Below, piece by piece: positions 31,126 through 49,224 of a DNA stretch of 64,000 nt. Location of the stretch: the NCBI RefSeq assembly GCF_044704955.1, contig NC_091995.1:53878001-53942000 (forward strand). The letters run 5' to 3'. This DNA is from Pristiophorus japonicus (Eukaryota). The notes beneath the pieces were generated by a model. The model was not told the origin of the DNA and did no database searches. It worked only from the letters and a program-made list of their open reading frames with translations. Numbering within the stretch: position 1 is the stretch's first letter; every line of letters begins with the position of its first letter. Both the position numbers and the translations under genes were made by a program.

Positions 31126-33121
31126 CCCTCTCTCACTCTCCCCTCAGGGCCCTACACTCCCAGTACTGGACATTCCCCACACTCACTCTGTCCCTCAGTT
31201 CTACATTCCCCTCTCTCACTCTCCCCTCAGGGCCCTGCACTCCCAGTACTGGACATTCCCCACACTCACTCTGTCCCTCAGTTCTACATTCCCCTCTCTC
31301 TCACTCTCCCCTCAGGGCCCTAACTCCCAGTACTGGACATTCCCCACACTGTGTCCCTCAGTTCTACATTCCCCTCTCTCACTCTCCCCTCAGTGCCCTA
31401 CACTCCCAGTACTGGACATTCCCCACACTCACTCTGTCCCTCAGTTCTACATTCCCCTCTCTCACTCTCTCCTCAGTGCCCTACACTCCCAGTACTGGAC
31501 ATTCCCCACACTCACTCTGTCCCTCAGTTCTACATTCCCCTCTCTCTCACTCTCCCCTCAGTGCCCTACACTCCCAGTATTGGACATTCCCCACACTCAC
31601 TCTGTCCCTCAGTTCTACATTCCCCTCTCTCTCACTCTCCCCTCAGGGCCCTGCACTCCCAGTACTGGACATTCCCCACACTGTGTCCCTCAGTTCTACA
31701 TTCCCCTCTCTCACTCTCCCCTCAGTGCCCTACACTCCCAGTACTGGACATTCCCCACACTGTGTCCCTCAGTTCTACATTCCCCTCTCTCTCACTCTCC
31801 CCTCAGTGCCCTACACTCCCAGTACTGGACATTCCCCACACTGTGTCCCTCAGTTCTACATTCCCCTCTCTCACTCTCCCCTCAGGGCCCTACACTCCCA
31901 GTACTGGACATTCCCCACACTCACTCTGTCCCTCAGTTCTACATTCCCCTCTCTCACTCTCCCCTCAGGGCCCTACACTCCCAGTACTGGACATTCCCCA
32001 CACTCACTCTGTCCCTCAGTTCTACATTCCCCTCTCTCACTCTCCCCTCAGGGCCCTGCACTCCCAGTACTGGACATTCCCCACACTCACTCTGTCCCTC
32101 AGTTCTACATTCCCCTCTCTCACTCTCCCCTCAGTGCCCTACACTCCCAGTACTAGGCATTCCCCACACTGTGTCCCTCAGTTCTACATTCCCCTCTCTA
32201 ACTCTCCCCTCAGTGCCCTACACTCCCAGTACTGGACATTCCCCACACTGTGTCCCTCAGTTCTACATTCCCCTCTCTCACTCTCCCCTCAGTGCCCTAC
32301 ACTCCCAGTACTGGACACTCCCTACATTCACTCTGTCCCTCAGTTCTACATTCCCCTCTCTCACTCGCCCCTCAGTGCCCTACACTCCCAGTACTGGACA
32401 TTCCCCACATTGTGTCCCTCAGTTCTACATTCCCCTCTCTCACTCTCCCCTCAGTGCCCTACACTCCCAGTACTGGACATTCCCCACACTCACTCTGTCC
32501 CTCAGTTCTACATTTCCCTCTCTCACTCTCCCCTCAGTGCCCTACACTCCCAGTACTGGACATTCCCCACACTGTGTCCCTCAGTTCTACATTCCCCTCT
32601 CTCATTCTCCCCTCAGTGCCCTACACTCCCAGTACTGGACACTCCCTACATTCACTCTGTCCCTCAGTTCTACATTCCCCTCTCTCACTCGCCCCTCAGT
32701 GCCCTACACTCCCAGTACTGGACATTCCCCACACTCACTCTGTCCCTCAGTTCTACATTACCCTCTCTCACTCTCCCCTCAGTGCCCTACACTCCCAATA
32801 CTAGACATTCCCCACATTCACTCTGTCCCTCAGTTCTACATTCCCCTCTCTCACTCTCCCCTCAGTGCCCTACACTCCCAGTACTGGACACTCCCTACAT
32901 TCACTCTGTCCCTCAGTTCTACATTCCCCTCTCTCACTCTCCCCTCAGTGCCCTACACTCCCAGTACTGGACATTCCCCACACTCACTCTGTCCCTCAGT
33001 TCTACATTCCCCTCTCTCACTCTCCCCTCAGTGCCCTACACTCCCAGTACTGGACATTCCCCACACTGTGTCCCTCAGTTCTACATTCCCCTCTCTCACT
33101 CTCCCCTCAGTTCTACATTCC
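31126..33121. repeat. ~83-bp minisatellite (79/83/85-bp variants, ~24 copies)
   Basis: Unit CCCCTCTCTCACTCTCCCCTCAGTGCCCTACACTCCCAGTACTGGACATTCCCCACACTCACTCTGTCCCTCAGTTCTACATT in tandem; C/T-rich on +. Confidence 0.97.
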
Positions 33122-33139
33122 TCTGTCTCTGATTCTTAC

Positions 33140-33253
33140 CTCTCCGTTGTTTTATCCAGATGACTATTCCGATAATCCCGAATGTAGCCAGTGCAACGAT
33201 TAATCCAATGATAATATTAAGATGGGAGCGTACACCAGTGTTTTCCGGTATTT
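33140..33253 (-). CDS. MHC class I-like exon 5, connecting peptide + transmembrane (EIPENTGVRSHLNIIIGLIVALATFGIIGIVIWIKQRR)
   Basis: Acceptor TGTTTCAG, donor G|GTAAGA, phase 1; ~21-residue hydrophobic stretch followed by basic KQRR. Confidence 0.87.
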
Positions 33254-33324
33254 CTGAAACACAGTTGAATAATATCAGGATAGTCTGCCTGTTGCCGGAT
33301 CCATTCCCAGTTCTGTGTTGATGA

Positions 33325-33512
33325 GAGGACAATTTTCACTTCACCTACCCGTCGGTTATCTGACGGGATCGGGTCCATCACTGGTTTTACTGCCGCCTGA
33401 TTTTACTCTCCACTGAAGATAATAAAGTGTCACTTTGATGGTGGTATGAAACCAGGACTGCCCCGATCCCATGGGTTACCTGCCCGGCGAGTTCGCTTCT
33501 AATTACCCCCAA
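33325..33512. mobile_element. Small imperfect palindromic element (MITE-like)
   Basis: Arms GGGATCGGG / CCCGATCCC and CTGGTTTTAC / GTATGAAACCAG are symmetric around a central AT-rich core. Confidence 0.45.
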
Positions 33513-33521
33513 TGTCTCTGT

Positions 33522-34900
33522 CCTAGAATCATAGCCTTCGGCCCATCGTATCCGTGTCGGGTGAAAAAGAGCTACCCAGCCTCATCCCACTTTCCAGCTC
33601 TTGGTCCGTAGCCCTGTCGGTTACGGAACTTCAAGTGCACGTCCAAGCACTTTCTAAATGTGATGAGAGTTTCTGCCTCTACCACCCTTTCAGGCAGTGA
33701 GTTCCAGACTCCCACCACCCTCTGGGTGAAAATTGTTTCCTCATTCCCCTCTAATCCTTCTACCAACTACTTTAAATCTATGCCCCCTGATTATTGACCC
33801 CCTCTGCTTAGGGAAATAGGTCATTCCTATCCACTCTATCTGGGCCCTTCATAATTTTATACACCTCAATAAGATCTCCCCTCAGCATCCTCTGTTCCAA
33901 AGAAAACAAACCCAGCCGACCCAATCTTTCCTCATAGCTAAAATTTTCCAGTCCTGGCAACATCCTCGTAAATCTCCTCTGTACCCGTTCTAGTGCAATC
34001 ACATCTTTCCTGTAATGTGGAGACCAGAACTGCACACAGTACTCCAGCTGTGGTCTAACTAGTGCTGTATACAGTTCTAGCATAACCTCCCTGCTCTTAT
34101 ACTCTATGCCTCTGTTCCTCCCATTTATTATAAATTCCGTTGCCGCCTTGCACCTTCCCAAATGCATTACCTCACACTTCTCCAGATTGAATTCCATTTT
34201 CCACTTTTCTGCCCAACTGACCAGTCCATCACACGGCCAATTTTTGTATTATCTGCAAACCCCTTTTATTATGCCCCTACATTTAAGTCGAAATCATTCA
34301 TATATAGTACAAAAAGCAAGAACCCAGCACTGAGCCCTGCGGAACCCCACTGGTAACAGCCTTCCAATTGTAAAAACACCCGTCAATCATTACCCTTTGC
34401 TTCCTGCCTCTGAGCCAATTTTGGATCCAACTTGCCACTCTCCCTTGGATCCCATGGGCTTTTAGTTTTTTGATCAGCCTGCCATGTGGGACCTTGTCAA
34501 AAACTTTGCTAAAATCCATGTAGACTACATCAAATGCACTGCTCTCATCGACACTCCTTGTTACCTCCTCAAAAAATCCAATCCAGTTAGTCAGACATGA
34601 CCTTCCCTGAACAAATTCATGCTGACTGTCCTTGATTAATCTGTGTCTTTCTAAATGATGGTTTATAGTGTCCCCCAGAATTGATTCCAATAATTTGCCC
34701 ACCAGCGAGGTTAAACAAATTGGCCTGTAATTACTCGGTCTAAACCTTCCTCCTTTTTAAACAATGGTACAAAGTTCGCAGTTCTCCAATCCTCTGGCAT
34801 CACTCCTGTAGCCAGCAAGGATTGGAAAATGATGGTCAGAGCCTCTGCAATTTCCTTCCTTGCTTCTTTTAATAGCCTAGGACATATTTCATCTGGTCTT
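33522..34900 (-). mobile_element. CR1 LINE 3' part with internal deletions
   Basis: ORFs 34298-34702 (RT: [25 protein letters not shown]), 33808-34197 and 33572-33766. Confidence 0.92.
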
Positions 34901-34949
34901 GGCCTTATTCCATCCCCAGGGTCACCAAGTAGTCAGCATCACTGATGGT

Positions 34950-37900
34950 TTTCACATCAAACTTCAAAGTAATGAAGAATAAATTGACTGCAGTAAACTG
35001 GGCTGAGCTGGTGATGAGTAAAACTACAGATAAATAGTGGGAACAGTTTAAAGGAAGTACTGGGTACAATACAACACCAGGACTTACCTGTACAATGCTA
35101 AGACTCCACTTCTGTAGTTAGGCAACCATGGTCAACAAATGAAAGAAGTGAGAGTATCAAGCTAAAGGGAAAGGCTGACACAAATGGTCAGAGATTGAGT
35201 TACAGAGCAGTTAGACAAGTATCAGCTCATCAGAGAGAGTCAGAATGGATTTTGAAGGGTAGGTCCTGTCTGACTAATCTCATTGAATTTTATGAGGAGG
35301 TCACTAACATGGTGGATAAGGGAGTGTCTATGGATGTTGTCTATATGGTATTCCAGAAGACATTTGACAAGGTTCTGCACAAGAGATTTTTAGCAAAAAG
35401 AACAGCGTACAGAATTGGAGCTAATCTTGTGACAGGGGTTGAAAGTTGGTTGGGAGGAAGGAGACAGAGAAGAGGGATAAAGGGAATCTGCTCTGATTGG
35501 CAGGATGTGACGAGTGGTGTTCCCCAGGGATCTGGACTGAGGTCCCAGCTTTTCACCATACATATTAATGACTTAATGAAGGAATAGAGAGTTGTATATC
35601 CAAGCTTGCAGATGGCACTAAGTTAGGAGACACAATAAAGGGACATTGACAGATTAAATGAGTGAACTCCATCTGCCATAGCTTTGCCCAATGTGGTGAA
35701 GTATGAGATCATCCATGTTAGATTGGAGGAAGACAAACTGGAATATTGTCTTCATGGTGAGAGACTTGGAACTGTAAAGGAGCAAAGAGATGTGGTGTCC
35801 ATGTGCACAAATCACTAAAAGCTCGTGTACTGGTTTAAAAAAGCAATCCAAAAGGCTAATGGAATGTTGGCCTTTACATAGAAACATAGAAAATAGGTGC
35901 AGGAGTAGGCCATTCGGCCCTTCGAACCTGCACCACCATTCAATAAGATCATGGCTGATCATTCCCTCAGTACCCCTTTCCTGCTTTCTCTCCATACCCC
36001 TTGATCCCTTTAGCCGTAAGGGCCATATCTAACTCCCTCTTGAATATATCCAATGAACTGGCATCAACAACTCTCTGCGGCAGGGAATTCCACAGGTTAA
36101 CAACTTTCTGAGTGAAGAAGTTTCTCCTCATCTCAGTCCTAAATGGCCTACCCCGGATCCTAAGACTATGTCCCCTGGTTCTGGACTGCCCCAACATCGG
36201 GAACATTCTTCCCGCAGCTAACCTGTCCAGTCCCGTCAGAATCTTATACGTTTCTATGAGATCCCCTCTCATCCTTCTAAACTCCAGTGAATACAGGCCC
36301 AGTTGATCCAGTTTCTCCTCATATGTCAGTCCAGCCATCCCTGGAATCAATCTGGTGAACCTTCATTGCACTCCCTCAATAGCAAGAACATCCTTCCTCA
36401 GATTAGGAGACCAAAACTGAACACAATATTCCAGGTGAGGCCTCACTAAGGCCCTGTACAACTGCAGTAAGACCTCCCTGCTCCTATACTCAAATCCCTT
36501 AGCTATGAAGGCCAACATACAATTTGCCTTCTTTACCGCCTGCTGTACCTGCATGCCAACCTTCAATGACTGATGAACCATGACACCCTGGTCTCGTTGC
36601 ACCTCCCCTTTTCCGAATGTGCCGCCATTCAGATAATATTCTGCCTTCGTGCTTTTTGCCCCCAAAATGGATAACCTCACATTTATCCACATTATACTGC
36701 ATCTGCCATACATTTACCCACTCACCTAACCTGTCCAAGTCACCCTGCAGCCTCTTAGCGCCTCTTCACAGCTCACACCGCCACCCAGCTTAGTGTCATC
36801 TGCAAACTTGGAGATATTACACTCAATTCCTTCATCTAAATCGTTAATGTATATTGTAAAGAGCTGGGGTCCCAGCACTGAGCCCTGCGGCACTCCACTA
36901 GTCACTGCCTGCCATTCTGAAAAGGACCCGTTTATCCCAACTTTCTGCTTCCTGTCTGCCAACCAGTTCTCTATCCGTCGGTACATTACCCCCAATACCA
37001 TGCGCTTTGATTTTGCAGGACCTTTTGCGGGACCTTGTCAAAAGCCTTTTGAAAGTCCAAATACACCACATCCACTGGTTCTCCCTTGTCCACTCTACTA
37101 GTTACATCCTCAAAAAATTCCAGAAGATTCGTCAAGCGTGATTTCCCTTTCATAAATCCATGCTGACTTGGACCGATCCTGTCACTGCTTTACAAATGGG
37201 CTGCTATTTCATCTTTAATAATTGATTCCAACATTTTCCCCACTACTGATGTCAGGCTAATCGGTCTATAATTACCCGTTTTCTCTCTCCCTCCTTTTTT
37301 AAAAAGTGGTGTTACATTAGCTACCCTCCAGTCCATGGGAACGGATCCAGAGTCGATAGACTGTTGGAAAATGATCACCAATGCATCCACTATTTCTAGG
37401 GCCACTTCCTTAAGTACTCTGGGATGCAGACTATCAGGCCCCGGGGATTTATTGGCCTTCAATCCCATCAATTTCCCTTACACAATTTCCTGCCTAATAA
37501 GGATATCCTTCCGTTCCTCCTTCTCACTAGACCCACTATCCCCTAGTACATTCGGAAGGTTATTTTAGTCTTCCTTCGTGAAGACAGAACCGAAGTATTT
37601 GTTCAACTGGTCTGCCATTTCTTTATTCCCCATTATAAATTCACCTGAATCCAACTGCAAGGGACCTACGTTTGTCTTCACTAATCTTTTTCTCTTCACA
37701 TATTTAGAGAAGCTTTTGCAGTCAGTTTTTATGTTCCCTGCAAGCTTCCTCTCGTACTCTATTTTCCCCCTCTTAATTAAACCCTTTGTCCTCCTCTGTT
37801 GAATTCTAAATTTCTCCCAGTCCTCAGGTTTGTTGCTTTTTTAGCCAATTTATATGCCTCTTCCTTGGTTTTAACACCATCCTTAATTTCTCTTGTTAGC

Positions 37901-39057
37901 CACGGTTGAGCCACCTTCCCCGGTTTATTTTTACTCCAGACAGGGATGTACAATTGCTGAAGTTCATCCATGTGATCTTTAAATGTTTGCCATTGCTTAT
38001 CCACCGTCAACCCTTTAAGTGTCCTTTCCTTTGCCAGTCTATTCTAGCCAATTCACGCCTCATACTGTCGAAGTTACCTTTCCTTAATTTCAGGACCCTA
38101 GTTTCCGAATTAACTGTGTCACTTTCCATCTTAATAAAGAATTCCACCATATTATGGTCACTCTTCCCCAAGGGGCCTCGCACAACAAGATTGCTAATTA
38201 GTCCCTTCTCATTACACATCACCCAGTCTAGGATGGCCAGCTGTCTAGTTGGTTCCTCGACATATTGGTCTAGAAAATCATCCCTTATACACTCCAGGAA
38301 ATCCTCCTCCACCGCATTGCTGCTAGTTTGGTTAGCCCAATCTATATGTCGATTAAAGTCGCCCATAATAACTGCTCTACCTTTATTGCACACATCCCTT
38401 ATTTCTTGTTTGATGCTGTCCCCAACCTCACTACTTCTGTTTGGTGGTCTGTACACAACTCCCACTCGCGTTTTCTGCCCTTTGGTATACCTCGAGGGGG
38501 CTAGAATACAAAGTGAGGAAATTATGCTTCAGTTGTACAGAGCCTTGGTCAGACTCCATCTGGTGTACGACATTCTGTTCTGGGCACCAAACCTCACGCA
38601 CGATATATTGGTCTTGGAGGGGTACACTGCAGGTTCACCAGAATGAAATCAGCTCAGAGGGTTAAATTATGAGGACACATTTAGCTTGTATTCCCTTGAG
38701 AGTGGAAGGGTGATCTAATCGAGAGGTTTAAATTACTAAATGGATTCGACAGAGTAGATACAGAGAAACTATTTTCTCTGGAGGTTAAGGTGGAACAAGA
38801 GAGCATTTAGGGTGAAATCAGAAAGCACTTTTTCACACAAAGGGTAGTAGCAATCTGGAACTCTCTCCTCCAAAAGGCGATGGATGCTGGCGGTTCAATT
38901 GAAGTTTTCAAGACTGATATCAAGAGATGTTTGTTGGGTAAGGGTATCAAGGGATATAGAGCAATGGCAGGTAAATGGAGTTAAGGTACAGATCAGCTAT
39001 GATCTCACTCAATGGTGGAACAGACTCAATGTCCTACTTCTGTTCCGATGTTCCATA
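34950..39057 (+). mobile_element. Older CR1 LINE (34950-35876 and 38489-39057) interrupted by a nested CR1
   Basis: ORF 35195-35587 has RT motifs. The sequence GGAATGTTGGCCTTTA... resumes as CTCGAGGGGGCTAGAATACAAA after the nested copy. Confidence 0.8.
35877..38488 (-). mobile_element. Younger 5'-truncated CR1 LINE (EN C-terminal half, RT, tail), frameshifted
   Basis: ORFs 38007-38465 (GVVYRPP, MGDFN, SDHN), 37190-37471, 36726-37001 (KFADDTKL), 36363-36713 and 35967-36350; (TTTCTATG)n tail at 35877. Confidence 0.95.
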
Positions 39058-39060
39058 CCT

Positions 39061-39061
39061 G

Positions 39062-39099
<38 letters not shown>
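39061..39099. repeat. Compound microsatellite: short GC run then (CA)16, in intron 4 next to the alpha3 donor
   Basis: Directly visible. Confidence 0.97.
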
Positions 39100-39100
<1 letters not shown>

Positions 39101-39117
39101 CCAGTGCAGTTCCTTAC

Positions 39118-39396
39118 CCCACTGATAGACCTTTGCCTCTGCCAGGCTGCTGTGTTCAATTTGACAGGAGTATTGATCCTCATCCCCAGCATGTACTTCA
39201 ATCTCTTTCTTGATCTGATGGGTCCCATCATGGTTTGGTCGAACCCCTGAGGAGTGGCTCTCAGACACTGGCTCTCCAATCCTGAGCCAGATCACCTTGA
39301 TGTCAATTGGGTAAAATCCAGTAACCAGGCAGGAGAGTGTGGGCAGTTTGTCCTGACGATTGGGGTCACTTCTGGAGATGAACACTTCAGGCTGAA
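39118..39396 (-). CDS. MHC class I-like exon 4, alpha3 Ig C1 domain
   Basis: LSCLVTGFYP, WLR, RPNHDGTHQ and YSCQIEHSSL motifs; 279 bp; AG and G|GTAAGG boundaries; 106-bp intron to exon 3. Confidence 0.96.
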
Positions 39397-39502
39397 CTGA
39401 AAGGGGAAAGGGAGAAAACACAGACACCGAATGGAATGGGATAATAGTTTCCTAGATCTGTGAAGTTAGATCAGAACGTGGGATAAAAACTGAAATAAAT
39501 AC

Positions 39503-39778
39503 CTTTCCTTGCAAAGTATTCCTTTCCAGCTCGCAAATATAAATGTAAAGACTGAACAAATCCTTCTTCCAGATGTGTTTTCCAATACTTGTTCCAGGAT
39601 TCATCAGAATTCCATTTCTCCTTAGTCTTCACTGCATTATGATTGGTTGCGATCCATTTCATTCTGTCTGGTTCTAAACTAAGATAGTCCTTTCCATTAT
39701 ATCCAACATTCATCGATTTCTTAATGGAGCCGTCTTCTGTTATTTCAACAGTTGAAATCCATTGAAAAATGTGAATTC
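39503..39778 (-). CDS. MHC class I-like exon 3, alpha2 domain (GIHIFQW...GYNGKDYLSL...TKEKW...YLRAGKEYFARK)
   Basis: Canonical 276-bp size with AG/GT boundaries. H93/Q96, G120-K-D122-Y123, T143-K-x-K146-W147 and Y171 are recognisable. Confidence 0.94.
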
Positions 39779-40574
39779 CTGTCAGTAACCAAACAGGGAT
39801 CAATAATCAGTTGTTAATGGGAAATCATAAATCAGTCTGATCAGAGGGGAATGAGCATCTCAAAGTATCAGGTAGAAATGGAGGGATAGAGTCACAGTCT
39901 GACAGGGGAAAGGGACTATAATATCAGGTAGAAATATCAGAAATGTTCCCAATGGAAGGCGATTATGGGACTTTGTGGCAGTGAGTTCACAGACCAGCCC
40001 GAACTTTCCAATAAGTTTCATCCGATTAATGGGCAGAAGTTGGATGGAATGATTATTGGGAAATTGGGCAGAGCTCCATCCAAGAGGGTTAATTCCCAAT
40101 AGTGCAAGCAAAGAGGTTAATTCCCAGCACATCAATGAAAACGTTAATTCTCAGCATGCTAACAACAGGAGTTAATTCCTAGTACACTAACAAAAGGGAT
40201 TCATTCGCAGCACGGAGTGTCCCAGGGATCGGTGCTGGGGGATGGGCTGAGTGGAGGTGTCCCAGGGGTCAGTGTTGGGATCCTACTGCATCCAGTCTCC
40301 CTAAACAACCTGGATTCAGAAACAGAGTGTAAGTTATACTGACACTGAACTGAGGGGTAGGGGCAGCGCCTCTTCGAAGCGGCTAGAGGGCCCTGCACAA
40401 AATGTTGCAAATGTAATTTAGTAGTGAGGGTTCGGCACCAAGATGTAGTATTAAAAAGTCGAAACAAGTTGCACAGATGACTGGGAGAGACAGTTAGAGT
40501 GAGAAATATTACAGAATTAGGTGGGATCATCGAAAATACAAAGAGGTCTAAGTTAGATTTAGAGTGCATGAGTG

Positions 40575-40665
40575 TAAATGCTGGAAATACTCAGCAAGTC
40601 AGGAAGCATCTATGGAGAGAGAAACTGAGTTAATGTTTCAGCTCGATGACCTTTTATCAGAACCT
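40575..40665 (-). mobile_element. Penelope-type terminal repeat fragment
   Basis: AAATGCTGGAAATACTCAGC..GCATCTATGGAGAGAGAAAC..TTTCAGCTCGATGACCTTTTATCAGAAC; homologous to 44590-44780. Family assignment is from recall. Confidence 0.55.
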
Positions 40666-40772
40666 TCAATATAGGACTGAAGACAGGCAGCATTTCTTCG
40701 TCCTAAAAGTGATCAGTGTCTGCAATGGTCTCTTGGTTAGGGTGCTGGGTTTAGGATACTCACTATCCTTCC

Positions 40773-43700
40773 TGTCATGTATGTACTTGTGGGTCACTAG
40801 CCACTAGATGGCGTCACTGTTGGAGGCCATTGGGCTGCACTTACGTGTGTGCAGCCCAAGTATAAAAGCCCAGCCATTTTGTATTATACTCACTTTGGGC
40901 CTTAATAAAGCAGAGCCAAGATTATACCTTTTGGAGTCAACAATACTTAGTCTAACAAGTTATTGCATACACAACATTTAGCGACGAGGCAACAACAACC
41001 TTTGCATGCAAAAATGAGCACAATTGGATTGTTGGAGCGATTTGTGGAAGAAGATTGGGCCGACTTTGTGGCCAACAAAATGGAGGGGGAAGACGATGCA
41101 GATCGGCGCCGGGCAGTGTTCCTCACGGTTTGCGGTCTGAAAATTTATGGTCTTATAAAGAATCTCCTTTTGCCTGTGAGTCCAGCAGAGAAAAAGTATG
41201 AAGAATTATGTACCCTGGTATGTGACCACCTTAAGCCAGACGAAGGCATCATCATCTCAAGAAACAGATTTTACACACAGAGGACCAGAATGTGGCGGAA
41301 TTCCTTGCCGACCTGAGATGTCTAGCTGGACCGTGTAAGTTCGGTGCTGTGTTGGCAGACATGCTGCGGGACTTCTTTGTAATCGGCATCAACCACGAGA
41401 TGATCCTGCGTAAACTACTGGCGGTGGAGACGTTGGACTTAAACAGGGCCATCACTATCGCTCAGTCATGCATGACGACGGACAAAAGCTTAAAGCAGAT
41501 ATCAATGAAAAATCGAAACTCAGCAAGTACTGTAAATATGATTGATTTGGCGTTTGGCAGAGCGGCACATGGCAGGGCCTACCCGACTGCGTACGTGAAA
41601 CCTGTGGCTGCCCAAAGTCCGCCAACGAGAATGCATCCAATTTCTCCATGTTGGCATTGTGGGGGAAATCACCGGCACCATCAGTGTCGATTTAAACAAA
41701 ATAGTTGTAAAGGTTGTTTGAGAGTGGGGCATTTCCAGCGCAAGTGTCCGCAACTGAGCAAGCGAGCTGTGACACACCACGTGGAGGATGATGAACAGTC
41801 TAGCACGGATCTGGATACGCAATCTGAGATACCAGAGGAGAAAGTGTATGGACTGTACACATTCCTACCTAAGAGCAAACCGATAATGATCAACGTGAAA
41901 TTTAATGGGGTGCCGGTATCGATGGAACTGGACATGGGGGTGAATCAATCGATGATGAGCCAGAGGGCATTCAACAAGTTGTGGGGTACTAAGGCTGTGA
42001 GGCCCAGGCTAAGTCTAGTCAATGCCAAGTTGTGTACGTACACTAAAGAACTCATAACGGTGATTGGCAGTGCCAAAATTAAAGTGTTCATATGACGGTG
42101 CGGTTCACGAGTTACCGCTCTGGATTGTCCCAGGCAATGGCCCAACACTGTTCGGCAGGAACTGGCTTGAAAAAATCAAATGCGATTGGAACGACATCAA
42201 GGCTTTGTCGTCGGAGGATGATTCATGTGCTCAAGTACTGAGCAAGTTCCCCTCGCTGTTCGAACCAGGCATCGGCAACTTCACAGGAGCTAAGATGCAG
42301 ATCCACATGGACTCGGATGTAAGACCCGTCCATCATAAAGCTCGGGCAGTGATGTGTATGATGAGGGAGAAGGTAGAAATCGAACTGGACAGACTCCAGC
42401 GTGAAGGGATCATATCACCGGTTGAATTTAATGTATGGGCCAGCTCCATTGTTCCTGTGCTGAAAAGTGATGGCACAGTCAGAATCTGTGGAGACTACAA
42501 GGCTACAATCAACAGGGTTTCGAAACAGGATCAGTACCCATTACCGAAGACTGATGACTTGTTTGCAACGCTAGCAGGGGGGAAGTCGTTCACCAAACTG
42601 GACTTGACATTGGCCTACATGACACAGGAGCTGGTCGAGACATCGAAGAGACTTACGTGCACTAACACGCATAAAGGACTATTTATTTATCACAGGTGCC
42701 CTTTCGGAATTCGCTCGGCTGCAGCAATATTTCAGAGGAACATGGAGAGTCTACTGAAGTCCGTTCCCAGAACCGTCGTGTTCCAAGATGACATCCTGAT
42801 CACAGGTTGTGACTCCGAGGAACATCTGAACAACCTGGAAGAGGTTCTACATCGTCTGGACAAAGTGGGACTCAGACTGAAACGCTCGAAGTGCATCTTC
42901 ATGGCACCAGAGGTCGAATTCCTGGGGAGGAAAATTGCTGCTGACGGCATCAGGCCCATGGACGTGAAAACCAAGGCCTTCAAGAATGCACCCAAGCCGC
43001 AGAATGTGACGGAACTGCGTTCGTTCCTGGGTCTACTCAACTACTTCGGTAACTTCTTACCTAGATTGAGCACCTTATTAGAACCACTGCACATGCTGCT
43101 AAGGAAAGGCGACAACTGGGCGTGGGGTGCGTCTCAAGACAGAGCTTTTGAGAAAGCCACTAATCTGTTTTGCTCTAACAAGCTGCTGGTAGATTATGAC
43201 CCATGTAAATGTTTAGTATTGGCCTGTGATGCTTGGTCATAGGGAATTGGTTGCGTACTCCAACAAGCTAATGAGTCGGGTAAACTTTAACCAGTCTCTT
43301 ATGCTTCAAAAAGTTTGTCTAAAGCGGAAAGAGCCTACAGCATGGTAGAGAAAGAAGCACTAGCCTGCGTGTATGGGGTTAAAAAGATGCATCAGTACCT
43401 GTTCGGTCTTAGGTTTGAAATGGAAACAGATCACAAGCCACTCATTTGATTGTTTTCTGAAAACAAAGTTTTCAATACCAATCCCTGCCATTGCCACTCC
43501 CACCAGTCAGTCACCCAGCCACCAGTCACAACAGACTCTGAACACTCACCCAAGGCTGGAGTTGAACTGAGATGGTCAACCCGAGAGCGTAAAACACCGG
43601 ACCGGTAAAAGACCGTGTCAACATCTCAGAGAGGGGTATTGTCATGTATGTACTTTTGGGATCACTAGCCACGTATGTGCAGCCCAAGTATAAAAGACCA

Positions 43701-43804
43701 GCCATTTTGTATTATACTCACTTTGGGTCTCAATAAAACAGAGCCAAGGTTATACCTTTAGGAATTAACAGTACTTAGTCTAACAAGTTATTGCATACAC
43801 AACA
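40773..43804 (+). mobile_element. Gypsy/Ty3 LTR retrotransposon in MHC intron 2, integrase deleted
   Basis: LTRs 40773-40976 and 43640-43804 (TG...CA), 5-bp TSD CTTCC on both sides, PBS-like TAGCGACGAG and PPT AGAGAGGGG. Gag has CCHC knuckles, protease ELDMG, RT FQDD (ORF 42064-43242) and RNase H. No integrase core. Confidence 0.96.
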
Positions 43805-44168
43805 CTTCCCTTATAATACAAGCACATGGACTCAAGAGATAGAGAGACCTCTGATTATTTAAAAATATACTAATACAACCCACTACATGCAGCACTCATG
43901 AAATCGGTACCAATTATACCCATGAACAGAGAACTCATCGCAGGTTCATAATCTGTGTACTGCAGACTACTCAGGCTAGCCCCATGCAAGACTAGAAAGC
44001 GTTTCTAAAGTGTTCCTGTATCCAGTACCTTTATATGGTTAATCACGTAAGGCAAACAGGGGGTTAATACATAAGGACTTTTCTACTACCTGCAGTTAGT
44101 GTGGAAGTACACATGGTTAATATGTCATTGCATCAATAATCCTCCTCCCTACATGCACTTGCTCATTA

Positions 44169-44585
44169 GTGTCAGCTGTGGCTCAGTGGGTTGCACCCTT
44201 GCCTCAGAGTCAGAAGGTTGTGGGTTCAAATCCCACTCCAGGAACCTGAGCACATAAAAATCTAGGCTGATATGCCAGTACACTGCTGAGGGAGTGCTGC
44301 ACTGTCAGAGGTGCCGTCTTTCAGATGAGATGTTAAACCGAGGCCCCCCTGCACTCTCAGGTGGATGTAAAAGATCCCATAGCACTATTTCAAAGAAGTG
44401 CAGCGGAGGTAACCCTCCATTAACTTATCCCATTGCTGTTTATGGGAGCTTGCTATGTGCTAATTGGCTGCTGCGTTTCCCACATTACAACAGTGACTAC
44501 ACTCAAAAAGTACTTCATTGGCTGTGAAGCCCTTAAGGGCATCCTGAGATTGTGAAAGGCGCTATATAAATGCAAGTCTTTCTTT
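44169..44585 (+). mobile_element. tRNA-derived SINE with Deu central domain (SacSINE1-like)
   Basis: A box TGGCTCAGTGG, B box GGTTCAAATCCC, core GGTGCCGTCTTTCAGATGAGATGTTAAACCGAGGCCC..GTAAAAGATCCCAT, tail GCGCTATATAAATGCAAGT(CTTT)n. Confidence 0.88.
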
Positions 44586-44587
44586 AT

Positions 44588-44780
44588 AAAACAGAAAATA
44601 CTCAGCAGGTCAGGTGCAAGGCATCTGTGGAGAAAGAACATTTCAATGATTCAGCTCGCTGACCTTTTATCAAAACATCTGTTTCTCTCTCCACAGATGC
44701 CCCGTGACCTGCTGAGTAATTCCAGCAGTTTCTGTTTTTATTTCAGATGTCCAGTATCTGCAGGATTTTGCTTTTATTCA
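44588..44780. mobile_element. Palindromic Penelope-type terminal repeat remnant
   Basis: TACTCAGCAGGTCA..GGCATCTGTGGAGAAAGAACA is inverted relative to TGTTTCTCTCTCCACAGATGCC..TGACCTGCTGAGTA. Confidence 0.55.
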
Positions 44781-45265
44781 TGTTACGATCTGTTGATTGT
44801 TCTCTGCAATTCTCCATCCAGCAGTGACTGCCTCTGTCCCTGATACTTTTCAATTCCTGATCTCTCTGAGGTATTTATTACCGAGAGCTCCATTCTCCTT
44901 TCACACTGCCTCCTGGATTGGCATTGCCCGTTCTGCTCTACTGGAGAAGACCAATCTCATCCCCATATATAAGAATACTCAGCAAGAAGCCAGGATTTGA
45001 CCAACAATCTTCCCTTTCCCGGATGATCGCAACCATCTCACCATATTCTCACCTTGCTCTATCACAAACCTGACCTTCATCAATGTGGACAGAACTTTGT
45101 AAATATCTCCATCAGAATAGAGAAAAGGAAGAGAATAACCATCCGTGTGTTCCTGATTCACACTACACCCCAGTGTCACAGAGTGCAGTATAACTAGGGC
45201 TGGGTACCTGTCCGGCATCCACTAAACAGGGCAGTCAGTAGATGATTCTGCATCGCTGATCTTAC

Positions 45266-45526
45266 CGGATGTCTGGTTTGTCCCCTTCATTATCATATTC
45301 AGATTCTCCTTTGCCATGGCTGACCGTGTGTTCCCGAGATCTGTGAGAGAATCCCAGTATTGCTCACTGAGATAGTCTGCCATGAACTGCTGCCTGGGAA
45401 TTGCCCGGCGGATATCAGTGTCATGATAATTAAGTTGAACTCCCTTCACCATCGCAACATTAATAACCTCGGGCAAGTCGCTAATGCCGGAGATTGCTGT
45501 GTACATCACAGTAAGTGATTTCGTGT
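45266..45526 (-). CDS. MHC class I-like exon 2, alpha1 domain (DTKSLTVMYTAISG...QYWD...MKGTNQTS)
   Basis: Acceptor TTTTTGTTTTACAG, donor G|GTAAG, 261 bp. Class I motifs: LPE, YWD (Y59/W60), NQT glycosylation site (N86). Confidence 0.93.
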
Positions 45527-45677
45527 CTGTAAAACAAAAATTAAATGGACAGGTTATTAAACATATACAAGCATTGGCACCTAATCGAAGTGAAGCCTAT
45601 CCACATAGTGACAATCTCCAATAATCCACCACTTTATCTCAACATCAGATCCTGTCAGATATTAACTGGCTCAGAAT

Positions 45678-46240
45678 CAGATTAGAGCACTGCATACAGT
45701 TCTGATCGTCATATTATAAAAAGGATATAGAGGCACTGGAGAGGGTGCAGAGAAGATTTACAAGGATGATACCAGAAATGCGAAGGTACACATTTCAGGA
45801 AAGGATGGACAGACTGGGTCCCTTTTCTCTTGAAAAAAAGAAGGCTGAGGGGTGACCTAATAGAGGTCTTTAAAATTATGAAAGGTTTTGATAAAGTGGA
45901 AACAGAGAGAATGTTTCCACTTGTGGGGAAGAGCATAACTAGAGGCCATCAATATAAGATAGTCACCAAGAAATTCAATAGGGGATTCAGAAGAAACTTC
46001 TTTACCCAGCGAGTGGTGAGAATGTGGAATTCACTACCACAGGGAGTGGTTGAAGCGAATAGTATCGATGCATTTAAGGGGAGGCAAGACATGCATATGA
46101 GGGAGAAGGGAATAGAGGGTTATGCTGATAGATTTAGATGAGGAAAGGCGGGAGGAGGCTCGAGTGGAGTATAATCGCTGGCATGGACTGGTTAGGACAA
46201 ATGGCCTGTTTCTGTGCCATATATCCATGTAATCCTCTAT
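45678..46240 (+). mobile_element. CR1 LINE 3' end in MHC intron 1
   Basis: ORF 45830-46141 (RRLRGDLIEVFKIMKG, RNFFTQRVV) plus 3' UTR. Confidence 0.92.
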
Positions 46241-46370
46241 AAAGATGGCTGCAGCCTCTCAGAACAGGGACTAAACACGGAATCAGAGTCACTCAGACAT
46301 CCGATGGATTCAATGTGTCCCACATGGGAGAGTCTGGGGCACATTCGAGGAGTTTGAGTGTTAAATACAA

Positions 46371-46950
46371 GGGGGTCGAAATTCGGTGCTGCCGTTTTTC
46401 AGGTGGTGTCACCGTCTGAATGGAGATTTTACTACCAGGCGGCAGTTGCCACCTCCAACTGCGAAATTCAGTTTTGCTGCCTGAAAAGGGAATTACAGCG
46501 TTAAATCGGGCGTCGCACGCTACTCTGGAGGCGGTAAATGTCGGTAAATGAGGCGGCAACATCCAGGCGTCAATCATCATTTGTAACTGCGCCACAGATA
46601 TACTGCCGCCACCTGGATTCAATTGAGGCGGTGACTGGGTGTGACACTGCCTCGTGCATATATTCGCTTGCTACACACTCTCACAGGGTGAAGATGCAGC
46701 AGCAGCTCACCAGCACGCTCACCGCTTCCCTGACACCGCCGTCAATGCTCTGCTTGATGCCTTGGAGAGGCGTCGAGAACTACTGAGGACAGAGGCTGCG
46801 AGGAGGCCACAGCCTCAAACATTTCGCAGGCTATGGTGGAAAGTCGCTGAAATATTGTCAGCGAGTGGCACTGCCCAGGACAGCGACCCAATGTTGTAAG
46901 AAGTGGAACGGTGTGACTTGGTTGCTCAGGGTGAATATATTTTACATTAA
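46371..46950 (+). mobile_element. Harbinger-type transposon fragment (terminus + Myb/SANT-like exon)
   Basis: Starts GGGGGTCGAAATTC. RFPDTAVNALLDALERRRELL...LWWKVAEILSA and frameshifted QCCKKWN parallel the Myb/SANT exon at ~55900-56096. Confidence 0.65.
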
Positions 46951-46954
46951 CCTG

Positions 46955-47397
46955 AACATGCCATGCTCTGAGCTCAATGGGCAGTCTTTCCTCAATTCGC
47001 CAGGACACTAGTCCCAGCCTGGTTCAAGTGAAGCCCATTCTGACGGAACAGCTCCCTCTTTCCCCAGTACTGGTGCCACTGCCCCATGAATCAAAACCCA
47101 TTTCTCCCACACCAATCTTTGAGCCACGCATTCATCTCTCTGATCTCATTTACCCTATTCAAATTTGCACGTGGTTCAGGTAGTAATCCAGAGATTATTA
47201 TCTTTGTGGTTCTGCTTTTTAATTTAGCCACTAGTGGCTCATACACCCTCAGCAGAACCTCTTTGTTTGTCCTACCTGTGTCATTGATACCCAGGTGGAC
47301 CACGACAACTGGATTTTTCCTCTCCCATTCCAAGTTCCTCTCCAGTCCAGAGAAGATGTCCTTAACCCTGACAACAGGCAGGCAACACAGCCTTCGG
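46955..47397 (-). mobile_element. CR1 ORF1 fragment (SGNH esterase-like domain)
   Basis: ORF 47091-47444: CCLP..RVKDI, VVVVHLGIND, IISGLLP, MNAWLKDWC. Confidence 0.85.
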
Positions 47398-47610
47398 GAC
47401 ACATCAGGTCTATCGCTAACCTGGAACAGTAACCTGGGATACACTTGCTCTATCTCTAACCTGGAACACTAACCTGGGACACACCCGGTCTATCGCTAAC
47501 CTGGAACAGTAACCTGGGACACACCCGGTCTATCTCGAACCTGGATCACTAACATGGGCCACACCCGGTCTATCTCTAACATGGGCCACACCCAGTCTAT
47601 CTGAAACCAA
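47397..47610. repeat. ~40-bp minisatellite (~5 copies)
   Basis: GGGACACACCCGGTCTATCGCTAACCTGGAACAGTAACCT units in tandem. Confidence 0.85.
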
Positions 47611-48530
47611 GGGAAAGTGACATGGGATAGATCCAACTCTATCTGTAAGTTAAGACAGAGAACATCTGGAGGGAGGTATTAAGGAGACCCTGCTGACCAG
47701 GGAACATCTGGAGGGAGATATTAAGGATAACCCGAGGGCAGGTCTGTTGTCATAACCTGAAACATGTGGGAACAAAAATGTGATTGCCCCTGAAAACACA
47801 TGCGGAAATCGCGATGTGCGATCAACCCGCGCCTATTCCAAGTAATGCAGGCAGCACGCAAACTTTGCCATTTTGGACACAAAACGACATGTAGCGAAGA
47901 AAAACCGGGCACCATGGAGCCGAATTTCGTTTTAGAATACAAGAATGAAGAGAAACAGTGATGTTTGGGAAGATGAAGTGCGATGCTGTGGGGTGCGGTC
48001 ACTGTATGAACAGTCTCGCTGTACACCAGGAGTGTTGGACTAACAGGGGCAGCATCTCCACTGTGCTTAACATCCTATAATGACCACTTTAAACATGGCC
48101 AGTAGGGGCCCAAAGGATGTTGGTGGTGGATTGTCTGAGATAACCTGGTCTATTCAACCATGAGGGCATCACAGCTGTGCCTGAGGTGGGTGAGACATGG
48201 ATTATTCTCCCCGTGTGTTTAGAACACTTTAGTCCAGGAATGGTGAAACTTTACCTGCTCCCAATCTGTGCGAACATTAAAATGGCCCATTTTAACCACT
48301 TTCCATTTGCTACAAGCTTCTCTGCTCTCCGTGTTCCTGCATCCTGCTGTCAGGAGGCGTGTACACAACTCCCACCTCAGACTGACAGCCTGTGCTGGCT
48401 TCAGTGGTACAAAATATCAGGCAGTGTGTGTAACAGGCGGCTGATCAAATATCACCCGTTTCAAACTCTCGCTAAAAGTTCTGAATCACCCCCCAGAGAG
48501 TGAGAGTGGAGGGTTGAGTTCTTTACTTAC

Positions 48531-48582
48531 CGGGAGAGACCCAGGAAAAGCACAGGGATGTGGAGAGAAGGATCAGCAACAT
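48531..48582 (-). CDS. MHC class I-like exon 1, signal peptide MLLILLSTSLCFSWVSP
   Basis: ATG at 48582, hydrophobic leader, donor G|GTAAGT, phase 1. TATA box ~72 bp upstream. Confidence 0.88.
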
Positions 48583-48653
48583 TCTGGGAATCCACTGCCC
48601 CTATTCCAATCGGTGACTGGGAATAAAACTCTCCGAGTGGGACACATCGGCTG

Positions 48654-48873
48654 TTTATAGACTGAAAAATACACAACAGGTCTATTGGGGCCCCACTTTA
48701 CTGTTTATCTTGAACTTTGATCATTTCCTTGATCTGAAAATGCAGAGCCAGAGGGTGAATGATTGGTTACTCTGGGAACAATCTCCAATGAAAGCACTTG
48801 GCAGTCCCCTGTCACCAGTTACCAGGAAGCTCAAACTGAGACCGGTTGAGAGTCAGTCTGTGAAATAGAAACT
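48654..48873 (-). promoter_or_regulatory. MHC class I-type promoter: ISRE, S-X-Y module, CCAAT, TATA
   Basis: On the minus strand: ISRE AGTTTCTATTTC (48873-48862); S box CAACCG (48848-48843); 16-bp spacer; X box CCTGGTAACTGGTG (48826-48813); 20-bp spacer; Y box TTCATTGG (48792-48785); CCAAT (48766-48762); TATAAA (48659-48654). Confidence 0.85.
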
Positions 48874-49096
48874 AAGGTTGAGACTGAACAAGCCTCATAC
48901 ACCAGCTCCAGTTTAAAGGGCAGATATACTGGGATCCTGGGCTGCCCCTCACAGTCAACACATTGACACTGGGCCCCTCCCACTGGGAACCTGTAAACTG
49001 GTTCTGATCTGGACTGTAGTTATACCACAACATGTTACAGCTATACATCATCTTTAACGTACTGTAAACCACAAGGGGCATCACAGAGCAACGCAT

Positions 49097-49224
49097 CGGG
49101 AGTGAGGGGAGGGGTCAAACTACGAGGCAGTGAGTCATTCTAACAGGGAGTGAGGGGAGGGGTCAAACTAACGGAGTGAGGGGAGGGGTCAAACTAACGG
49201 AGTGAGGGGAGGGGTCAAACTAAC
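49097..49224. repeat. 26-bp G-rich minisatellite, left remnant
   Basis: GGAGTGAGGGGAGGGGTCAAACTAAC, about 4 copies. Confidence 0.92.

Follow-up and report, generated by a model that had tools for sequence, protein, structure and literature searches.

The window analysed here, a stretch of 64,000 nucleotides from the sawshark Pristiophorus japonicus, carries on its minus strand a class I gene of seven exons, all of them with GT-AG splice sites. The spliced translation of the seven exons is exactly the 365-aa protein P0003, which is named Pristiophorus japonicus and which was also the best database protein for the alpha2 domain of the window (100% identity there). The product is an MHC class I heavy chain, with leader, alpha1 and alpha2 domains, an Ig C1 alpha3 domain, transmembrane and cytoplasmic exons and the class I fold. 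The open frame and intact splice sites claimed in the original prediction were thus borne out, and its count of five exons was corrected to seven, two cytoplasmic exons being located outside the window, some 9.8 kb past its first base. The features of the locus are as follows:

48249..49224, minus strand: promoter, leader and intron-start block of about 1 kb, 94% identical to the UDA block at C19:53.25 Mb
48531..48582, minus strand: exon 1, leader peptide, 52 bp
45266..45526, minus strand: exon 2, alpha1 domain, 261 bp; Y7 replaced by V, R84 replaced by G, N86 glycan site retained
39503..39778, minus strand: exon 3, alpha2 domain, 276 bp; free of Cys, with AG and GT flanks
39747..39752, minus strand: ACT GTT, encoding T100-V101 where G100-C101 is usual (V101 GTT at 39749-39747)
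39558..39560, minus strand: TTT, encoding F164 at the position of C164 in the alignment to solved class I chains
39549..39551, minus strand: codon for S167 at the position of W167; sole alpha2 residue differing from the nearest paralogue
39118..39396, minus strand: exon 4 (279 bp), encoding the alpha3 Ig C1 domain with its two cysteines
33140..33253, minus strand: exon 5 (114 bp), encoding the connecting peptide and the transmembrane helix
1..25661: tandem array of a 37-bp unit, about 691 copies with 94% matches, in intron 5 between the transmembrane and cytoplasmic exons
Outside the window (G000:C19, about 53868174-53867949): two cytoplasmic exons, about 9.8 kb past base 1

The long open frames within the 37-bp array are repeat artefacts. 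One predicted isoform of the gene omits the transmembrane exon and corresponds to a soluble form.

The alpha2 exon matched the Pfam family MHC_I with E=2.4e-17. It was aligned to solved class I chains, without gaps to 7cpo and with a one-residue gap to 6lhg and 4e0r, and in this alignment T-V faces G100-C101 and F faces C164. The two substituted residues, V101 and F164, are positions 11 and 74 of the alpha2 domain, the same numbers given to the alpha2 bridge in a passage of PMC8236899. The protein spliced from the five exons of the window contains cysteine at position 11 in the leader and at positions 219 and 274, the alpha3 pair, and nowhere else. The Pfam match, the alignment to structure chains and the codons therefore confirm a Cys-free alpha2 domain of 276 bp with C101 changed to V and C164 to F, as had been read from the sequence at the outset. 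Among 134 representative alpha2 domains from outside the lineage described below, C101 is present in 130 and C164 in 129, so that the absence of both residues is unusual; G100 and W167 are found in 119 and 97 of the same domains, respectively.

Contig 10 of run X22 (run type unrecorded) joins alpha1 to alpha2 over the 5.5-kb intron with 0 differences from the window, and also carries the residue that separates the window copy from its nearest paralogue. Since this public contig has the same alpha2 domain, and since two genomic paralogues also lack both cysteines, an assembly error is unlikely. Comparison of alpha1 plus alpha2 with the distant 52.95-Mb paralogue gave an NG86 dN/dS ratio of 0.39 (bootstrap 0.25-0.60), a pairwise value for a single pair of paralogues and not for a branch. 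The intact frames, the spliced contig and the dN/dS value agree with the earlier view that the gene is divergent, non-classical and kept under constraint rather than decaying. No intronless copy of the Cys-less lineage was found in searches of the sawshark genome.

Relatives were collected by a single-exon search (42 proteins) and by a profile search (133 proteins, 120 of them listed), with a method that depends on shared words. After removal of 15 partial matches, the lineage was defined as 87 full alpha2 domains of at least 50% identity (85 clusters), and it is represented in at least 11 named sharks. Among the 42 single-exon matches and the 120 of 133 profile matches listed, a few of which are unnamed, neither a ray nor a chimaera was named. 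At position 101 the 87 domains have no Cys at all and only aliphatic residues (V in 80, A in 3, I in 2, L in 2), in agreement with the expectation that V101 would be conserved in relatives. Position 164 is far more variable, with L in 30, F in 22, C in 9, Y in 8, S in 6, G in 4, D in 3, V, H, W and T once each and one gap; L, F or Y thus accounts for 60 of the 87. G100 and W167 are each absent from all 87 domains, and Y159 is retained in 16 and lost in 71. Position 7 is mostly Val, Tyr not being among its six commonest states. The nine domains with C164 have no second groove Cys in common that could form a replacement disulfide.

A tree built from 59 alpha1-alpha2 rows, without dogfish UCA and without the nurse-shark query (the latter compared by eye), united the 44 lineage rows in a single clade (100/99) with a long stem. 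This clade consists of three larger groups of 11, 12 and 16 rows and three small ones on an open fork. The window gene belongs to a subclade (99/93) with genes of four galeomorph genera, Cetorhinus, Carcharodon, Chiloscyllium and Hemiscyllium, in which F164 is found in 6/6 rows and V101 in 5/6, and the C164 carriers are placed at four separate positions in the tree. F164 is thus shared by the whole of this subclade and not by the lineage at large. On the sequences compared, loss of the alpha2 disulfide is a trait of the whole shark gene family and marks neither a new lineage nor a decaying gene. We infer that C101 was probably replaced by Val first, in the ancestor of the lineage, and that C164 drifted later with scattered retention, although the C164 carriers may instead have regained Cys from Phe or Tyr codons.

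A shark non-classical class I lineage, UEA, has been described (Almeida et al. 2021, J Immunol 207:824). UEA is reported from sharks and is not known from rays or chimaeras; it is reportedly akin to dogfish UCA and made up of three sublineages. Its terminus-binding residues are reportedly not conserved and its groove is reportedly more hydrophobic than that of UAA. Three full copies of the Cys-less lineage were found in the sawshark genome, at 52.85, 52.95 and 53.92 Mb of C19, with UDA at 53.27 Mb and matches to the BET and Zip domain families at 55.2 and 41.2 Mb, respectively, from which the names brd2 and slc39a7 were inferred. As described in part of PMC10751288, a single-copy UDA and a multicopy UEA are located between brd2/b2m and slc39a7/hsd17b8, and the position of the sawshark copies fits this cluster, since UDA lies among them and all are between the BET and Zip domains. 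UBA and UEA are the two expanded shark class Ib families named in a section of PMC12562908. Taken together, these statements on copy number and position and the reported features of UEA make it very probable that the lineage of the window gene is UEA.

The other described lineages agree less well. The supplement of PMC10751288, from which 26 query alpha2 domains were compared, has in that query set none labelled UEA, and its Cys-less nurse-shark query, which we take to be UEA, is labelled UCA; in the white-shark table of the same source the genes are named just 'MHC-Ib', so that accessions are not assignable to UEA. The window gene is identical to the nurse-shark query at 57/92 alpha2 positions (62%) and 77/93 alpha3 positions (83%), and to dogfish UCA (AF515705) at 27/92 alpha2 positions, all compared by eye, so that dogfish UCA was rejected. 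UBA, UDA, UFA and UGA were rejected because their labelled queries in that supplement set all have both alpha2 cysteines, and UDA and UGA-like rows form separate clades. The W-category, given in a passage of PMC9586880 as an alpha-beta heterodimer whose domains are arranged as in class II, does not correspond to a single chain with alpha1, alpha2 and alpha3, and classical class Ia (UAA) is excluded by V101, F164, T100, S167, V7 and H159. A ray query labelled UHA in the same supplement set also lacks both alpha2 cysteines, probably as a separate event.

An undescribed lineage, neither UEA nor UCA, would be in keeping with the absence of sequences labelled UEA from the comparison. We consider it improbable, because one member is already in the query set of specialists (PMC10751288, in the part concerned), because only UBA and UEA are named as expanded shark class Ib families in the section cited above, with UBA queries retaining both cysteines, and because the locus position fits the UDA/UEA cluster. 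The suggestion that the gene might represent a new lineage is therefore not supported, since the gene belongs to a multicopy lineage of sharks, at the UDA/UEA position, of which a Cys-less nurse-shark query is already published. Placement in a described Cys-less lineage, which had been named as removing the novelty, is largely what was found. The trait is thus family-wide and the family is most likely UEA.

Several observations concern the surroundings of the gene and the other class I loci of this genome. The promoter and leader block of UDA (L048, G000:C19:53.25 Mb) is 94% identical to window 48249-49224, the encoded proteins being about 38% identical. Leader variants follow species and not lineage, the sawshark pair and the Chiloscyllium punctatum pair each having its own variant, and this pattern suggests that the leader block may have undergone repeated gene conversion between UDA and the Cys-less lineage. 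Upstream of the leader, at about 48862-48873 of the window, there is an ISRE-like motif; in the 52.86-Mb paralogue a 14-bp deletion removes part of it. The window gene (33001-48582) is a mosaic, 98.5% identical overall over 12 kb to the 52.85-Mb copy and closer to the 52.95-53.01 Mb copy in the alpha3 exon (2 differences versus 9) and in the leader block (99%). For the 52.85-Mb paralogue, the predicted model continues into a long frame unrelated to it and searches showed no cytoplasmic exons next to that copy; we regard this model as a likely annotation chimera.

A non-MHC contig (G000:C3, 316.6-319.3 Mb) carries nine nearly identical class I genes of classical-like type without introns (L007-L014, L017). 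They read from leader to tail in one frame, keep both alpha2 cysteines and have the full 355-aa frame in 8/9 cases; they are likely an amplified retrocopy. In the elasmobranch genomes surveyed in PMC10751288, no class I gene was found outside the MHC. Further class I exon matches outside C19 are L020 (G000:C11:148.4 Mb), a match at G000:C6:62.07 Mb and L021 (G000:C8:177.2 Mb), the last including a short fragment like the alpha2 domain of the Cys-less lineage. Three alpha2 exons like the UGA queries, one with a stop, are located at 44.9-49.7 Mb of C19 (L016, L018, L019); UGA is given as single or low copy in a section of PMC12562908.

Groove residues were compared in 79 lineage proteins, 25 of 104 having been dropped for want of a full alpha1-alpha2 region. 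W133, W147, W156 and M114 are invariant in 79/79, W152 is present in 78/79, K146 in 71/79 and T143 in 59/79. Q96, G120 and D122, which presumably contact beta2m, were also found in 79/79. The window gene retains 6/9 peptide-terminus residues, and 63/79 members retain 5 or 6. Mean identity among lineage members is 50% in alpha1 and 68% in alpha2. The Kyte-Doolittle value of the groove is 0.41 for the window gene and 0.41±0.33 for the lineage, as compared with -0.09 to 0.76 for five classical-like controls, a modest hydrophobicity that overlaps one of the five. The AlphaFold2 model showed a class I platform with pLDDT block means of 81-94 over alpha1-alpha2, and its top structural matches were classical class I, MR1 and YF1, tied at Z ~24; rmsd values of 6 Å probably reflect the placement of alpha3 in a model without beta2m. 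No solved structure of a Cys-less lineage member was present among the structural matches.

In passages of PMC8236899 the C101-C164 bridge is described as ancestral and well conserved in both MHC classes, bracing the part of the groove that has no support from an Ig domain. G100 is said there to interrupt the regular strand and to raise the bridge, turning W167 up to close the groove, with W167 blocking the peptide N-terminus together with Y7, Y59, Y159 and Y171; MICA also lacks the G100 irregularity according to the same source. Since G100 and W167 are gone in 87/87 domains and Y159 is mostly gone while the other half of the groove is conserved, the disulfide loss appears as one part of a dismantled N-terminal wall. 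We therefore favour, with a probability of roughly 0.55, an intact non-classical class I molecule, likely UEA, without the alpha2 disulfide and with a groove that has a predicted hydrophobic ligand and an open N-terminal end. Once the N-terminal wall was no longer needed, the bridge would have become dispensable. Replacement of C101 by Val would then leave C164 unpaired and free to drift, and Val101 may pack beneath the alpha2 helix in place of the bridge. In this arrangement the C-terminal half with its Trp lining, where T143, K146 and W147 are retained, would hold the ligand, whose other end would be free. Candidates are a hydrophobic peptide, acylated or with an N-terminal extension, or a lipid, putatively presented with beta2-microglobulin to T or NK-like receptors, and variation in alpha1 could tune the ligand of each paralogue. 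The modest hydrophobicity of the groove and the six retained terminus residues, which would also suit the binding of ordinary peptides, speak against this reading.

This arrangement has to be weighed against three other explanations. MICA is not known to bind a ligand, and a groove of the Cys-less lineage filled by its own Trp residues and empty of ligand, in a MICA-like stress or self ligand for NK-type receptors, would account for W97, W147, W152, W156 and M114 crowding one half and for the missing G100 irregularity shared with MICA. T143 and K146 are however largely retained, and alpha1 is more variable than alpha2, as expected if ligand specificity differs, so that we consider this explanation unlikely. 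Much the same holds for co-selection of Val101 and Phe164 as a hydrophobic substitute for the disulfide in a near-classical groove for short peptides, which we also doubt. The constancy of F164 in the subclade of the gene, the predominance of L, F or Y at position 164 and the six retained terminus residues are in its favour, but position 164 may also be C, S, G, D, H, T or W, and the losses of G100, W167 and Y159 described above speak against it. Of the selected V/F pair proposed earlier, the near fixation of V101 and the uniform F164 of the subclade stand, and the residue at 164 does not hold lineage-wide. Loss of the cysteines through pseudogene decay of the window copy is scarcely credible. 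The copy is a recent duplicate, as its identity to the 52.85-Mb copy indicates, and their differences are mostly replacements (alpha2 1/1, alpha3 7/9), too few to judge; the loss is older than the copy and spans the shark species listed above, and the frames, splice sites, spliced contig and dN/dS value are those of a maintained gene. Decay as the cause of the Cys loss is thus refuted.

Taking the open-ended groove further, the lineage might be a natural class I molecule that returned to a groove end open as in class II when G100, C101, C164 and W167 were lost all at once, with a Trp cage presenting acylated or overhanging ligands, unrecognised in print; we put this forward as a speculative and rather unlikely possibility. 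Specialists very likely already know the family containing the window gene, and novelty is low because Cys-less sequences of the lineage are public. The UEA paper itself likely states the disulfide loss. No title or abstract stating it was found in a search mostly outside the subscription literature, so the loss may have been published, and the passages of PMC4364491, PMC9586880, PMC2848993 and PMC6664060 that were covered contain nothing on it. The joint loss of G100, C101, C164 and W167 may be the part that is new. A lineage without the bridge across the main shark groups shows the conditions under which the bridge can go, and allows the proposed joint closure of the class I groove by G100, the bridge and W167 to be tested directly.

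In comparison with known systems, the lineage shares with UEA the multicopy state, MHC linkage beside UDA, restriction to sharks among named matches and, less clearly, altered terminus-binding residues, and differs in that the sawshark genome yields just three full copies. Spiny dogfish UCA (AF515705) has in common with the window gene an alpha2 domain without Cys, Val101, the lack of Gly100 and Trp167, and Trp152 and Trp156, but its alpha2 identity is the low value given above and T143, K146 and W147, present in the window gene, are absent from it. Shark UDA (P0297 of nurse shark, P0293 of sawshark) is the cluster neighbour, with the same leader peptide and the 94% identical 5' block, whereas it has G100, C101, C164 and W167, is about 28% identical in alpha2 and forms a separate clade. 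Classical class I (shark UAA 6LUP, chicken BF2), MR1 and chicken YF1 have the same three-domain fold and differ at about 30-35% identity; the alpha2 disulfide is present in the aligned classical chains and is kept in MR1 and YF1.
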